A DNA stretch of 44,742 nucleotides from a phage: sequence record PX974237.1. One strand, given 5' to 3'. How positions within the stretch are numbered: position 1 is the stretch's first letter; the number at the start of each line of letters is the position of its first letter. The position numbers and the translations under genes were made by a program. The notes under the pieces were generated by a model. The model was not told the DNA's origin. It saw nothing but the letters and a program-made list of their open reading frames with translations, and did no database searches. Positions 3,855 to 29,224 of this stretch are shown here, in pieces.

Positions 3855-3883
3855 ACTATAATAGCGAACTATTCACATGTCAA
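3855..3883 (-). promoter_or_regulatory. Sigma70-like promoter (TTGACA-17-TATAGT), replication-module family
   Basis: Minus-strand TTGACA (3883-3878), 17-bp spacer, TATAGT (3860-3855); about 30 nt upstream of the HNH start. Confidence 0.5.
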
Positions 3884-3947: not shown

Positions 3948-4163
3948 ATGCAACCATCTGAACTAGGCACCCGTGTAGAACAACGCCGTAAAGAACTCGG
4001 CATCTCCCAGCGCCGTTTGGCGGCCCTGACCGGCGTTTCCCAGGGCGCGATTAACCAACTGGCACTTGGAGTAACTCAGGACGTCCGCCCGGCAACGCTG
4101 TTCAAACTGGCGGAAGTTCTGGAAGTAGACGCCAAGTGGCTGGCGTTCGGTGAAGGGGCTTAA
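3948..4163 (+). CDS. XRE-family helix-turn-helix transcriptional regulator
   Basis: 71 aa; GISQRRLAALTGVSQGAINQLALG HTH motif; RBS AAGGAG upstream. Confidence 0.75.
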   Translation: MQPSELGTRVEQRRKELGISQRRLAALTGVSQGAINQLALGVTQDVRPATLFKLAEVLEVDAKWLAFGEGA

Positions 4164-6615: not shown

Positions 6616-6906
6616 TTACCGTTTAGCCAACCCTTCCAGCAAATTTTTATACTCTTCAAAATATTCCTCGACCAAATCATCGCCGAAATAGAAGTCGATA
6701 TACTCGAGATTATCTCTTACGTTAAGCGATGCCGACATGGTGCTTAGTTGGCGTAAGCTAATTAGCTTCATTTCTGTTTCTACGCAGAAAGGCCGGTAGG
6801 TATCAAGATGGCAAGAGATATTGAAGCATAAAGCGAACTCTCCGGCCACGGAGTGAACCATATACACTTCGTTTTCTGCTTTATTGTGGAAAATTACGCC
6901 TTTCAT
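6616..6906 (-). CDS. Hypothetical protein (96 aa)
   Basis: ORF; start overlaps stop of upstream HTH gene. Confidence 0.4.
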   Translation of the reverse strand: MKGVIFHNKAENEVYMVHSVAGEFALCFNISCHLDTYRPFCVETEMKLISLRQLSTMSASLNVRDNLEYIDFYFGDDLVEEYFEEYKNLLEGLAKR

Positions 6907-7085
6907 TTCACGTTCTCCTTAATCCATGCTTCGACTTTATTACGGTCAAATGTTCCCGGTAAACGGCGGCCCATAACCTTAATACAGCAGTCAGGGAATT
7001 TGCCGCTGCGCAACCAGTTATTAATGGTCTGACGTGTCACCCCGATACGTTCAGCTACTTCATTCTGCGTCATATAATGCGACAT
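6903..7085 (-). CDS. Small HTH DNA-binding protein (putative transcriptional regulator)
   Basis: Start placed at internal ATG (7085-7083) with AGGAGAT RBS; MSHYMTQNEVAERIGVTRQTINNWLRSGKFP helix-turn-helix; divergent from the early operon. Confidence 0.55.
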   Translation of the reverse strand: MSHYMTQNEVAERIGVTRQTINNWLRSGKFPDCCIKVMGRRLPGTFDRNKVEAWIKENVK

Positions 7086-7116
7086 TTTTATATCTCCTGT
7101 TTGTTTGGTGAAACTG

Positions 7117-7145
7117 AGTATAGGATAGCGGGAATGTAAAAGCAA
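7117..7145 (-). promoter_or_regulatory. Sigma70-like promoter (TTGCTT-17-TATACT) for the leftward HTH operon
   Basis: Minus-strand -35 at 7145-7140 and -10 at 7122-7117 with 17-bp spacer. Confidence 0.45.
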
Positions 7146-7182
7146 CCAATCTCTGTAATATTTAATCTTTACAAAAATGTTA

Positions 7183-7212
7183 TTGAAAGTTCTTGACACA
7201 TGTTTGTATAAT
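7183..7212 (+). promoter_or_regulatory. Strong sigma70-like promoter (TTGAAA-18-TATAAT)
   Basis: TTGAAA at 7183-7188, TATAAT at 7207-7212. Confidence 0.5.
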
Positions 7213-7237
7213 GGTTTTGGGACTTGTATATATTACG

Positions 7238-7274
7238 GAGTTGACGAACCCTCCCCGAGGGATTCGTCAACTCC
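7238..7274 (+). promoter_or_regulatory. Long perfect inverted repeat (hairpin or operator)
   Basis: ggagttgacgaaccctc-ccc-gagggattcgtcaactcc: 17-bp stem with one bulge and a 3-nt loop. Confidence 0.5.
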
Positions 7275-7411
7275 TCCCAGACAGCTGAGATGCTTGCCTT
7301 GGGGTTTATGGATAAGTGTATCTAAATCTCATTTAAAGAAGTAACCCGCTGAAATATCTACTGTTTCTTAATGTGCCGTAGATTCGCAACCGTAAAAATG
7401 TAACGATTATT

Positions 7412-7438
7412 GGGCAGGCTTAAGCCTGCCCTTTAGTT
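7412..7438 (+). terminator. Terminator-like hairpin
   Basis: gggcaggc-ttaa-gcctgccc followed by tttagtt. Confidence 0.45.
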
Positions 7439-7503
7439 ACCAAGTAATAAGAATAAAGGCACAACCCTCCCCGAAGAATCACAACGGCAACGTAACTAAT
7501 CTC

Positions 7504-7532
7504 TTGCACACCCCAACATAATAGGATACTAT
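7504..7532 (+). promoter_or_regulatory. Early promoter (TTGCAC-17-TACTAT), conserved family
   Basis: TTGCAC 7504-7509, TACTAT 7527-7532; about 38 bp near-identical to minus-strand promoters at 19051-19079 and 29089-29117. Confidence 0.55.
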
Positions 7533-7566
7533 TCACTTATCGAAACGAGACATAAGGAATTTAGAA

Positions 7567-7785
7567 ATGAACAAAGCGACCGCAAGCGTAGTTTCCGCAA
7601 TCAAACAAGTTTACGGCATCGATATTTCAGAGCGCGTAATTATCGGGAACAAGCGCAACTTCTTTACGTTAGACACCGACGGAATGGATGAAAATGATTT
7701 TGTTAACGTACAACGTTTCGCTATCGGTAAGGGGCTTCGTAATGAGCCTGCGGGTTACAAGAAATTCGCTATCTACTTTAAATAA
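7567..7785 (+). CDS. Hypothetical early protein (72 aa)
   Basis: First ORF after the early promoter; RBS AAGGAA upstream. Confidence 0.55.
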   Translation: MNKATASVVSAIKQVYGIDISERVIIGNKRNFFTLDTDGMDENDFVNVQRFAIGKGLRNEPAGYKKFAIYFK

Positions 7786-7842
7786 ACCCACGGCGCCGAA
7801 TCATGGCGCCAGTGCCGACGACTCTGAGGGAGGTTGCCGTTA

Positions 7843-8332: not shown

Positions 8333-8479
8333 TGTTCAATAGTTTGGGATTTTACTGAGTGACTTACGCTGCTACACAGCAGCGTATCATTTTTCTCATT
8401 TTTGTTCTATTTCACCAAACGCAACAATCGAAGCGACTATTGCAGGAGATGCAACAATACAAACACCAATAAAATTTAC

Positions 8480-8508
8480 TTGCACACTAAGATAGAATAG
8501 GCTACTAT
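8480..8508 (+). promoter_or_regulatory. Early promoter (TTGCAC-17-TACTAT)
   Basis: TTGCAC 8480-8485, TACTAT 8503-8508, then conserved TCAtTTAC motif. Confidence 0.5.
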
Positions 8509-8539
8509 TCATTTACACGAACGAGAGGAGAGACAGAAG

Positions 8540-8758: not shown

Positions 8759-9053
8759 CAAAAACCAAGTATTCGAGTACCTGATTGACCAACTACGGCA
8801 GCAAGTAAATAACAACCAGTGCGAAGACCTGGCGCATGAGGTGCAGTCACTTAAGAATCAGTTACGTGATGCTTCGGCGCAGATTAAGGAGTTGTATGAG
8901 GCACTGGATGCAGAGCTTAAATACAGCCGTAAGTTTCAAGAAGAGCAATCTGGCCGCAGGAAAGAAGATGCTCATGAATGTAGGCACGAGTGGTCCCGGT
9001 ACATCGTACACCCTCACAGAAAGGTATGCTTGGTGTGCGGAGTAAAGAAATGA
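8751..9053 (+). CDS. Coiled-coil protein with C-terminal Cys/His zinc-ribbon-like module (paralog of 9255..9554)
   Basis: ATG at 8751 overlapping upstream stop; C-terminus HECRHEWSRYIVHPHRKVCLVCGVKK. Confidence 0.5.
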   Translation: MSNKNQVFEYLIDQLRQQVNNNQCEDLAHEVQSLKNQLRDASAQIKELYEALDAELKYSRKFQEEQSGRRKEDAHECRHEWSRYIVHPHRKVCLVCGVKK

Positions 9054-9253
9054 CCAGCATCTTATTCATCTGGGTACTGTCCGCGGGCCAGATGCACCTC
9101 GCGGCATCAGAAACGTTTTACTCAATGGAGGCGTGCCAGTCGGCTGCCCGCGCCGCAGAGAACGCGCACTTTCTGTTTCAGGGTGACAAGCCCATCGATT
9201 CAGAGGTACGCGCTATCTGCTCACCTAAGCGACTTGGTAAACAGGAGAAATAA
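9050..9253 (+). CDS. Small protein with hydrophobic N-terminus (signal-peptide-like), 67 aa
   Basis: ATGA overlap with upstream gene; MTSILFIWVLSAGQMHLAASE... Confidence 0.4.
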   Translation: MTSILFIWVLSAGQMHLAASETFYSMEACQSAARAAENAHFLFQGDKPIDSEVRAICSPKRLGKQEK

Positions 9254-19023: not shown

Positions 19024-19050
19024 GACGGCCTCCCCGGTTCGATAGAATGA

Positions 19051-19079
19051 ATAGTACCCTATTATATTGGGGTGCGCAA
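19051..19079 (-). promoter_or_regulatory. Early-family promoter (TTGCGC-17-TACTAT) driving the membrane peptide and lipoprotein
   Basis: Minus-strand -35 at 19079-19074, -10 at 19056-19051; spacer accccaatataataggg nearly identical to promoter at 7504-7532. Confidence 0.55.
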
Positions 19080-19145
19080 ACTATTTGTTTATGTATTCCG
19101 GTTATTCCACTCAATTGTAAATGTTGGAATAAACTATTCGAATAG

Positions 19146-19174
19146 TTGACTTTTCACCAAAAATGTGCTAAGCT
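19146..19174 (+). promoter_or_regulatory. Candidate promoter (TTGACT-17-TAAGCT with TG extended -10)
   Basis: TTGACT 19146-19151; TGcTAAGCT 19166-19174. Confidence 0.35.
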
Positions 19175-19354
19175 CCACCTGAGCTTGTGAAGTATGAACA
19201 AGCGACCGCGGCGCGGGCAGGTAACGGAGCGGGACGTAAGTCCTGAGTGTAGTTACGCTGACGCGTTCGGAAGGGCCATACTCTATTGCTTGTGTAAAAA
19301 GTAACTGGTTTACTGAGATTACGCCGTTTCTATGTTTAAATGATAAGGACTAGC

Positions 19355-19381
19355 GCCCCGCTTTAAGGCGGGGCTTTACTT
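19355..19381 (+). terminator. GC-rich hairpin with weak T tract just upstream of the spanin RBS (terminator or attenuator)
   Basis: gccccgc-tttaag-gcggggc followed by tttactt. Confidence 0.35.
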
Positions 19382-19398
19382 ATCGAGAAAGGAGAAAC

Positions 19399-29047: not shown

Positions 29048-29088
29048 GGTGTAGCTCCTGTTTGGGATAACATCGTTGGTGTAAGTGA

Positions 29089-29117
29089 ATAGTACACTAT
29101 TATATTGGGGTGTGCAA
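29089..29117 (-). promoter_or_regulatory. Early-family promoter (TTGCAC-17-TACTAT) driving the imm / phosphoesterase / phosphatase / kinase cassette
   Basis: Minus-strand -35 at 29117-29112, -10 at 29094-29089; spacer accccaatataatagtg nearly identical to 7504-7532 and 19051-19079. Confidence 0.55.
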
Positions 29118-29224
29118 GTAATGTGATAGAATAATTTTGCGCCTAGTGTCGCACACGAAAAGCGGGTGGTTCCCGTCTGGCGCATTAACCTTAACCCGTA
29201 ACCTCTTAACCAAAGGATTAAAGA

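Follow-up and report, generated by a model that had tools for sequence, protein, structure and literature searches.

The P1 locus

The window analyzed in this study, i.e., the entire stretch of 44,742 nucleotides (nt) of sequence record PX974237.1, is the complete 44.7-kb genome of a Kagunavirus (Guernseyvirinae). We investigated its P1 locus, a gap of approximately 480 nt that separates two divergent transcription units and contains, between positions 7183 and 7438, a promoter (P1) followed by a structured and apparently non-coding segment. Across positions 6900–7800, the sequence is ~98% identical to Escherichia phages Bas70 and JSSK01. On the left of the gap, an operon opens with the gene of a 60-amino-acid (aa) HTH_17 (excisionase-type) regulator and continues into the helicase-primase, as judged from Pfam and PHROGs. 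In this gene context, it is served by the leftward promoter PL, whose −10 hexamer (AGTATA on the plus strand) is retained in most types of the locus. On the right, a rightward unit begins at 7567 with a first gene at 7567–7785. According to the Bas70 annotation, this unit comprises ~14 small genes, two holin genes, an endolysin gene, further small genes, and the terminase and portal genes. A preliminary description of the locus had called its first gene an early gene, a label that does not suit a unit running through holin, endolysin, terminase, and portal.

The same description had proposed a TTGAAA-18-TATAAT promoter at 7183–7212, a very stable hairpin with a 17-bp stem at 7238–7274, and a separate promoter at 7504–7532 for the next gene. 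All three were recovered (Table 1). P1 lies at exactly the proposed coordinates and is one of only three sites in the genome that match the sigma-70 consensus at 11 of 12 positions; the downstream promoter, P2, was found as well, though with a poorer match. The hairpin, here delimited to 7237–7274, has a predicted folding energy of −28.8 kcal/mol (z = −7.4), and none of 200 shuffled sequences folded equally well. The whole predicted RNA (7219–7445) reached −77.4 kcal/mol (z = −5.9). Within the predicted transcript (7219 to ~7440), the longest open reading frame (ORF) has 11 codons with an ATG start and 16 codons with a TTG start, and none is preceded by a Shine-Dalgarno sequence. The earlier statement that no ORF exceeds about 10 codons is thus right for ATG starts only.

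Table 1. Features of the P1 locus and of cassette 2, in positions of the window
Feature	Position	Strand	Description
PL, leftward promoter TTGCTT-17-TATACT	7117–7145	−	8/12 in a relaxed consensus scan; back to back with P1
P1 promoter TTGAAA-18-TATAAT	7183–7212	+	11/12 of the sigma-70 consensus; predicted start ~7219
−10-like hexamer TATATT	7229–7234	+	transcript positions ~+10 to +16; sequence reading and relaxed scan
5′-proximal long hairpin	7237–7274	+	12 + 5 bp, bulged A7262, loop CCC
Type-A linker, A/U-rich	7275–7348	+	only in ~21 close relatives (BLAST coverage classes, type-A alignment)
Conserved 3′ module, type I	7349–7473	+	A/U-rich boxes UUUCUUAAUG, GUGCCGUAG, and AACCGUAAAAAUG, composite hairpin, AGUAAUAAGAAUAAA tract
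Composite hairpin	7400–7441	+	outer stem GTAAC/GTTAC (7400–7404 with 7436–7440), inner stem 7412–7419 with 7424–7431, loop TTAA
Hypervariable C/U-rich patch	7465–7473	+	at least 8 variants among 24 sequences; flanks invariant
Universal anchor AAGAATCACAACGGCAACGTAACT	7474–7497	+	24 nt, common to all three 3′ module types
P2 promoter TTGCAC-17-TACTAT	7504–7532	+	8/12 of the consensus; ahead of the first gene (7567–7785)
Cassette 2 promoter TTGACT-17-TAAGCT	19146–19174	+	read from the sequence; hexamers as in type D/G promoters at the P1 position elsewhere
Cassette 2 RNA	19181–19384	+	short 5′ hairpin, 65-nt GC-rich rod hairpin (19205–19270), A/U-rich linker, 3′ hairpin

A mosaic family of cassettes

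Our comparison drew on GenBank phages, IMG/VR, and metagenomes, which together supplied 59 distinct copies of the locus. The 5′ part, consisting of the promoter and a structured domain, can be sorted into at least six types that are unrelated in sequence (A, B, C, D, E, and G). The 3′ part has three types (I, II, and III), all of which finish with the 24-nt anchor followed by P2. The combinations observed were A+I, B+I, B+II, C+I, D+II, E+II, E+III, G+II, and G+III. The window represents A+I, and as judged from this alignment the P1 segment is the left two-thirds of a mosaic cassette composed of a type A 5′ module and a type I 3′ module.

Despite their unrelated sequences, all types carry a near-consensus rightward promoter (TTGACA-17-TAAGGT, TTGACA-17-TAAGTT, TTGACT-17-TAAGCT, TTGACA-16-TAAAAT, or TTGAAA-18-TATAAT), located 210–285 nt upstream of a GC hairpin in every case. 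The order of parts likewise recurs in all types across the 59 sequences: promoter, long GC-rich hairpin, A/U-rich linker, and a GC hairpin of 6–9 bp with a stable tetraloop. In type A, the hairpin at 7237–7274 holds the place of the "rod" hairpins of the other types. Short boxes recur in the linkers (CUAUU; AAGUnnCUGAU; UUUCUa/u; GCCGUa/g). The CUAUU box has only the GCUCU core in common with the rrn boxA consensus, so that a boxA-like reading is a lead only. At loci L038 and L057, the left flank has been replaced with a breakpoint just upstream of the −35 hexamer, indicating that promoter and RNA travel as one unit. This conservation across all types bears out the earlier proposal of a promoter-driven, non-coding, structured unit that is separate from the promoter of the next gene. 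As a side observation, the cassettes contain a tetranucleotide microsatellite, (CTCA) repeated three to six times in type III (L029, L034, L037, L042, and others) and a (GTGA) expansion in the type II locus L036.

A protein partner that co-varies with the module type was sought and rejected. The 5′ types track only the physically adjacent leftward genes, including the variants of the HTH gene, and the 3′ types are linked to nothing within ~6–7 kb on either side. Neither the window nor the two cassettes nor nine related loci matched an Rfam family, whether gathering thresholds or E-values were applied; the best sub-threshold hit reached ~17 bits (E ~1–3).

A second cassette ahead of the capsid operon

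A BLAST comparison of type D/G loci with the window revealed a second cassette (cassette 2; match at 19094–19288), which is 77–87% identical to the type D/G 5′ modules of other phages. One genome therefore holds two different 5′ types (A and G-like). The two cassettes (7183–7441 and 19146–19384) are alike in the order of their parts and in their boxes; CUAUUG, ACUGAG, GCCGU, and UUUCUAUG in the linker of cassette 2 are common to other cassettes. The cassette 2 promoter is followed by ~200 nt without a conserved ORF. The 3′ hairpin, GCCCCGC-UUUAAG-GCGGGGC at 19355–19374 with the tail UUUACUUAUC up to 19384, was flagged by the terminator scan.

The start codon of an Rz-like spanin gene (19399) lies only 24 nt past this stem, with Shine-Dalgarno sequence and ATG following directly; the scaffold and major capsid genes come next. 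Since there is no promoter between cassette 2 and the spanin gene, the cassette 2 RNA must be a 5′ leader. In Jerseyvirus Ent2, a strong terminator-like GC hairpin with a T run, read from the sequence, is located just upstream of cassette 2, whose own 3′ hairpin lacks a U tract. The capsid operon thus most likely depends on the cassette promoter.

The cassette 2 allele of the window is 95–99.6% identical in 179 records, including 65 Salmonella phages, and another 269 records carry an alternative allele of the kind seen in Ent2. Together, both alleles cover approximately every genome of the subfamily. The sequence comparisons thus indicate that a family of sigma-70-driven, ORF-less, structured RNA cassettes heads both long rightward units across the Guernseyvirinae.

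RNA structure and covariation

Covariation in related phages had been named in the preliminary description as a check on the structure. When folded separately, all alleles of the 65-nt GC-rich domain adopt a common three-tier hairpin. A six-sequence covariance model found Ent2-type and G-type alleles that had not been seeded, with E-values from 1.5e-5 to 0.011, and within the window it matched 19205–19270 only (87.7 bits). For the rods of cassette 2 and types D/G, with the caveat that the alignment used had been fitted to the model, 94.2% of the cells were paired versus 27–44% in slid controls, 10 of the 23 pairs were compensatory, and the covariation score exceeded that of all 500 shuffles. 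Two tandem G·U pairs are invariant in these rods, which points to sense-strand RNA only.

The 5′ modules of types B and C showed 99.3% pairing, four compensatory pairs, and 63 G·U versus 2 A·C cells on the structure predicted for the plus strand. The antisense consensus fold is likewise rich in G·U (94 versus 1 A·C). For types B/C, the strand evidence that can be used is the consensus fold, which is better on the plus strand (−13.1 versus −7.5). Our strand argument relies on covariation and G·U evidence and not on the minimum free energy (MFE). Compensatory changes thus maintain the hairpins in the sister types of the P1 cassette, while type A itself, found in only ~21 GenBank records, is too invariant for such an analysis. 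The 13 type A sequences aligned were nearly identical. Position 7272 is T in the window and C in 12 of the 12 others, where it creates an A·C mismatch at the third pair from the stem base; the full 17-bp stem is therefore peculiar to this genome.

The 3′ module, its terminator-like hairpin, and the anchor

The core at 7349–7545, consisting of module I, anchor, and P2, is 89.9% identical to Ent2, compared with 66–85% for long coding high-scoring segment pairs. Among stretches longer than 100 nt, only 9049–9249 (89.1%) is comparable. Module I is also ~84–92% identical in hundreds of Salmonella phage records. Several Salmonella phage records begin or end inside the core, at inconsistent positions, and genome termini at this site were rejected; in phage fBC-Eco01, no termini were found by PhageTerm.

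The inner GC hairpin, GGGCAGGC-TTAA-GCCTGCCC (7412–7431), has 8 bp, seven of them GC, a folding energy of −17.8 kcal/mol, and a z-score of −4.3. Stem and loop are those of an intrinsic terminator (GC-rich stem of at least 5–8 bp, loop of 3–8 nt). The tail that follows, TTTAGTTACC, contains a short and interrupted T tract; the U tract UUUAGUUA has five U in eight positions and at most three in a row. At the equivalent hairpins, the U tract is not kept, the tails being ACUGCGUUGC in type II, ACGUUCGUUU in type III, and UUAGCGUAUA in the Ent2-type cassette 2. Given the weak T tract here and the missing proper U tract in other alleles, the hairpin is at best a leaky intrinsic terminator or attenuator, with a terminator role that would be partial at most. 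Of the terminator with T tract proposed earlier for 7412–7438, the hairpin was confirmed and the T tract proved weak. The end of the unit at 7438 did not hold, since the strongest conservation extends from 7349 to ~7500, across the hairpin as far as P2, and a boundary at 7438 would split a conserved unit.

Terminator-like matches were common in the scanned region (11 found, 4.3 expected), so that the weight of the hairpin rests on its conservation. In the 24 distinct copies of module I that were aligned, the stem survives loop indels, a compensatory replacement of C-G by U-A (GGGCAGGT/ACCTGCCC in Ent2), and a G·U variant in L014. Other alleles replace it with different GC hairpins bearing stable tetraloops (UUAA, UAAC, cUUCGg, and UUAC). 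A candidate long-range pairing, GUGCC (7373) with GGCAC (7458) or UGCCGU with ACGGCA (7484), has single supporting variants in L019 (G·U) and L033 (9 bp), and its 5′ partner is deleted in L051 and L059. In L033 (IMG/VR 3300045988_019953; equivalent of 7373–7381 and 7452–7462), AATAAAGGCAC is changed to CTACGGCAC, which forms a 9-bp complement to GUGCUGUAG on the 5′ side of the hairpin. Two explanations are conceivable for this change: selection favoring a long-range helix around the hairpin, or a template-switch mutation at a quasi-palindrome.

The hypervariable 9-nt patch, with variants including CCCTCCCCG, CCTTCCCTA, CCCTACCTG, and CCCTGGTTG, sits within an otherwise invariant core of 150 nt. 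It resembles an anti-Shine-Dalgarno or a Rho-loading tract; 7432–7540 contains 29 C versus 13 G. A direct repeat, AACCCTCCCCGA (7247 and 7463), is significant within the window. It was rejected as an element because the second copy lies inside this patch and shows no co-variation with the hairpin loop among relatives.

The anchor has exact matches in 32 IMG/VR loci, and its 21-nt sub-word GAATCACAACGGCAACGTAAC matches 26 metagenome loci. It contains one copy of CAACGGCAAC, the commonest 10-mer of the genome, with eight exact copies (2277, 7482, 18810(−), 23559, 24430(−), 31770, 42109, and 43149(−)) versus ~0.09 expected. ACAACGGCAACG occurs within two mismatches at 26 sites, compared with 5.0 ± 2.2 in shuffles. 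The copies of CAACGGCAAC are mostly intragenic and present in both orientations relative to transcription, and related words also head the 10-mer list of Ent2. The word could be a protein-binding, Chi-like, or priming site.

Coding potential of the cassettes

No ORF on either strand of the locus is kept across relatives and types. The small-protein hypothesis was rejected: the plus-strand ORFs and the minus-strand ORFs of Bas70 (33 and 38 aa) differ in length and frame between types and persist only where other constraints conserve the DNA. The two minus-strand coding sequences (CDSs) of Bas70 (PQ850619; 36258–36359 and 36509–36625) correspond to 7169–7270 and 7420–7536 of the window, and vary between 21 and 116 codons in the related phages; their frames stay open only in stretches of conserved non-coding DNA. 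As judged from these alignments, the two "hypothetical protein" CDSs across the cassette are almost certainly spurious. Within the cassette 2 RNA, an Arg-rich ORF of 36 aa (MNKRPRRGQVTERD...AFGRAILYCLCKK) is located at 19194–19304 on the plus strand. Its ATG lies in a hairpin loop without a Shine-Dalgarno sequence; a version of the same length exists in L044, while G alleles have lost the frame and D alleles the ATG. This ORF, annotated in Bas70 as CDS Bas70_0007, is probably not coding, and Bas70_0007, Bas70_0055, and Bas70_0056 are probably not genes. A scan for tRNA and tmRNA genes found none.

Promoters and a phage-wide palindrome

The other two 11/12 promoters of the genome are located on the minus strand (3883 to 3855 and 1059 to 1031; TTGACA-17-TATAGT), and both have the palindrome AATAG-N4/5-CTATT embedded. 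P1 lacks this palindrome and thus appears to be unregulated by whatever binds it. P2 carries it: AATAG-GATA-CTATT (7520–7533) overlies the −10 hexamer. Four near-identical promoters of the P2 type occur at 7503–7540 (+), 8479–8516 (+), 19043–19080 (−), and 29081–29118 (−), all with AATAG-N4-CTATT over the −10 hexamer. The P2-type motif is the one that PHIRE called "phage promoter" in fBC-Eco01. The record of that phage also annotates a predicted host promoter and a predicted terminator at positions orthologous to those of the P1 segment; its paper claims no RNA. The palindrome is likely the operator of a phage regulator.

Function of the cassettes

The sequence comparisons establish the anatomy of the cassette, its non-coding nature, strong selection on it, its modularity, its presence in two copies per genome, and a sense-strand RNA fold in the paralogue family. 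For the P1 segment, we tentatively favor the reading that it serves in cis as a structured leader and attenuator and gives rise to a short RNA as well, with a confidence that stays somewhat short of even. Because the paralogue is necessarily a leader, we prefer this function for the P1 copy as well. The preliminary description had offered a small RNA or a structured leader. The leader option is strengthened by cassette 2, which abuts a gene start with no promoter between, and the free-standing RNA has become less favored.

According to the leader model, host RNA polymerase would start at P1 (~7219) upon DNA entry, P1 lacking the operator of the phage's other promoters. The nascent RNA would first fold the 5′ hairpin, which may protect the 5′ end and/or provide a processing site. 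The conserved A/U-rich boxes would follow, and then the GC hairpin (7412–7431) with its weak U tract. Some polymerases would halt at this hairpin, giving rise to an RNA of ~220 nt, and the remaining ones would read through P2 into the operon of small genes, lysis, and packaging. We infer both that P1 fires in vivo and that termination is partial. The RNA would act mainly in cis, as a leader or attenuator setting or conditioning rightward transcription. Candidate effects are attenuation or insulation of P2, 5′-end protection, RNA stabilization, and possibly anti-termination or anti-Rho conditioning of the polymerase. The early leader of phage T7 offers a parallel, as its strong host promoters are separated from the first gene by several hundred non-coding bases that include a long hairpin. 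It carries the RNase III site R0.3; T7 sites are longer, with an internal loop. Unlike these, the stem at P1 has 17 bp with one bulge, which is shorter than classical RNase III sites, and contains the A·C mismatch in 12 of 12 other type A sequences.

Several points weigh against the leader model. In the literature on the Guernseyvirinae, we found no transcriptome, no transcript data for any member, and no origin mapping. A plain MFE comparison of the strands revealed no consistent asymmetry, and the consensus folds, which favored the plus strand for types B/C, were equal for D/G and favored the antisense strand for E. The type A hairpin has no covariation support, its sequences being almost identical. 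P2 follows the GC hairpin, so that the downstream genes are independent of P1, as expected of a free-standing RNA gene. Finally, the strongly conserved primary sequence of the unpaired stretches would fit a DNA-level site equally well.

A free, trans-acting small RNA (sRNA) is, in our view, an unlikely but live alternative. P1 would then make a discrete RNA of ~220 nt ending at 7438, whose unpaired A/U-rich stretch (7349–7411) pairs with or titrates a host or phage target; conceivable roles are those of an Hfq-type regulator, a sponge, and a decoy. Enterobacterial Hfq-dependent sRNAs have their own promoter, a 5′ stem-loop, a conserved unpaired region, and a 3′ GC hairpin with U's, and the parts of the cassette are arranged likewise. 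The next gene is served by a separate promoter, and the absence of a phage operator from P1 would allow the RNA to be made immediately at infection. In the unpaired stretch, the phages of E. coli and of Salmonella hardly differ, which is what a conserved host partner would lead one to expect. However, no homologue was found in E. coli chromosomes or plasmids, save for one 44-kb "plasmid" record that, going by its size, may be a mis-filed phage genome, and a search for conserved complementarity within the phage genome gave nothing beyond chance-level 10–11-mers. The 3′ end fits poorly as well: the U tail is only UUUAGUU, a proper U tract is missing from types II and III and from the Ent2-type cassette 2, and the conservation continues unbroken beyond the hairpin to 7500. 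In addition, ~220 nt is at the upper end of the length of such sRNAs, and the paralogous cassette is a 5′ leader instead of an independent gene.

We regard a transcript-activated or transcript-primed replication origin as distinctly unlikely. The P1 transcript would form an R-loop or a primer in the A/T-rich stretch by the hairpin, where a T7-like replisome starts; a transcript-primed initiation model also exists for the primary origin of T7. The phage encodes a gp2.5-like single-stranded DNA-binding protein, a DNA polymerase, and a helicase-primase, and the locus adjoins the helicase-primase operon. The anchor bears the most over-represented word of the genome, possibly a protein-binding site. 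The cumulative GC skew has its minimum at ~7 kb, but it was rejected as an origin marker, as the skew merely tracks gene orientation throughout the genome. No iterons, DnaA boxes, or long DNA unwinding element were seen at the locus.

The origin reading draws on the Ceduovirus group (Lactococcus phage c2), for which a non-coding transcript, PE1-T, has been proposed to serve the origin and the structure of the transcript is thought to matter (PMC7150918). As in the c2 origin, a non-coding stretch without ORF or ribosome-binding site lies between the first two tandem promoters (PE1/PE2 there, P1/P2 here) in the gap between divergent blocks. In both cases, there are few discrete types (here at least six 5′ types and three 3′ types) that are unrelated to one another but well conserved internally, with >90% identity within a type in Ceduovirus (PMC7150918). 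This anatomical likeness is striking. There is no sequence similarity, the host of c2 is Gram-positive, and c2 origins replicate plasmids without phage proteins, whereas the present phage encodes its own replisome. Modules recombine freely here and natural 5′/3′ chimeras are common, whereas chimeric c2 origins were reported to be non-functional (PMC7150918). Moreover, the module type does not track the helicase-primase variants, and the second cassette leads the capsid operon and works as a leader, although secondary origins would still be compatible with this.

Even more doubtful is a sharper form of the leader model, in which the segment is an elongation switch. It would resemble the lambda late leader, in which PR′, the 6S RNA, and tR′ act with the antiterminator Q, or it would be an RNA-only, put-like antiterminator that lets P1-started polymerase ignore downstream terminators, e.g., that at 8365–8386. 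Terminators are indeed present inside the rightward unit. As in the lambda late leader, a strong constitutive sigma-70 promoter with a −10-like element in the initially transcribed region is followed by ~200 nt of ORF-less RNA up to a terminator or terminator-like hairpin, and the lysis, terminase, and head or portal genes come next. Unlike in lambda, P2 intervenes between hairpin and genes, the U tract is weak, and many unrelated 5′ alleles exist without a matching linked protein. Neither a Q-like nor an N-like product is annotated in the 98% identical Bas70, although not every ORF was scanned; the proteins near the P1 locus that were scanned were the HTH_17 regulator and proteins of unknown function (Pfam, PHROGs). 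The co-occurrence of two 5′ types (A and G-like) in one genome also argues against a type-specific protein partner.

The RNA-only variant has its counterpart in the put RNAs of phage HK022, ~70 nt in length, which form two adjacent stem-loops and a triplex and cause antitermination in cis via the zinc-binding domain of the polymerase β′ subunit; putL also contains a −10-like element (PMC9378689). Like putL and putR, the cassettes are two related structured RNAs made by host polymerase just downstream of sigma-70 promoters that head two operons, and they would likewise act without a phage protein. In contrast to put, they comprise a rod hairpin of 38 to 100 nt, an A/U-rich linker of ~135 nt, and a second hairpin, and they are unrelated to put in sequence. 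Elements of the −10-like kind are known to act in sigma-dependent pausing (PMC9378689), and the TATATT at 7229–7234 may possibly be a sigma-70-dependent pause element. This is a lead only, as such a repeat is not universal among the locus types. Downstream segments have promoters of their own (8479–8516), so that antitermination is not required.

Very improbable is a function at the DNA level only, in which the RNA would have no role of its own and core and palindromes would bind proteins, of the phage or of the host, that regulate PL, P1, and P2. In favor of this reading, the unpaired stretches are conserved in primary sequence, the anchor with its genome-repeated word occupies −65 to −40 relative to P2, where activators typically bind, and the adjacent HTH gene has variants linked to the 5′ module type. 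Against it, compensatory changes keep the hairpins while the sequence differs completely between alleles, unlike a fixed protein site, the invariant tandem G·U pairs and the G·U substitutions are meaningful only in sense-strand RNA, and the upstream promoter is always retained.

Novelty and significance

The kind of element is known, namely promoter-proximal non-coding leaders, attenuators, and primer transcripts of phages. The cassette family, its modular alleles, and its duplication at two operon heads appear to be undescribed. It is possible, though rather unlikely, that the cassettes constitute a new RNA class that programs host polymerase at operon heads, or primes a T7-like replisome, in a virulent siphovirus without its own RNA polymerase. 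Such a class would have a put-like or PE1-T-like function exerted by an unrelated modular RNA of rod hairpin, A/U-rich boxes, and GC hairpin, whose ultra-conserved alleles are exchanged between phages of E. coli and of Salmonella.

Kagunavirus and Jerseyvirus rank with the most frequently isolated therapy and biocontrol phages of E. coli and Salmonella and are represented in the BASEL collection. The cassette family is present in essentially all of ~450 genomes and includes some of the most conserved DNA common to both genera. Current annotations either pass over it or place spurious small CDSs there; it sits exactly where the two main rightward programs begin. A role in elongation or termination control would explain the timing of expression without an own polymerase or a known antiterminator, and a role as an origin would locate the replication start sites. 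In either case, the cassettes offer defined, swappable parts for phage engineering, and the annotation can be corrected.

Additional observations

In Jerseyviruses, ~1 kb without annotated genes extends from the HTH gene to the first annotated rightward gene (Ent2, HG934469, 37471–38478; locus L074). This region consists of the cassette, P2, ~500 nt of extra sequence, and a second P2-type promoter; the first P2 is deleted in SE2-like phages.

The four TTGCAC-17-TACTAT and the two TTGACA-17-TATAGT promoters, all with AATAG-N4/5-CTATT in the spacer or over the −10 hexamer, form a phage-wide promoter regulon. An inverted version of the palindrome, CTATTCGAATAG (19133–19144), is located immediately upstream of the −35 hexamer of the cassette 2 promoter. 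Inside the leftward replication operon, an ORF of 71 aa (MQPSELGTRVEQRRKELGISQRRL...; 3948–4163, plus strand) is divergent from the strong promoter at 3883–3855. Its Bas70 counterpart is annotated as "transcriptional regulator", and its product is a candidate for binding the AATAG..CTATT operator.

PL is flanked on both sides by the inverted repeat ACATTTTTATA/TACAAAAATGT (7082–7092 and 7170–7180). One arm overlaps the start of the HTH gene; the second is found immediately upstream of the −35 hexamer of P1. The pair, seen in type A only, is a possible operator pair for the HTH_17 protein.

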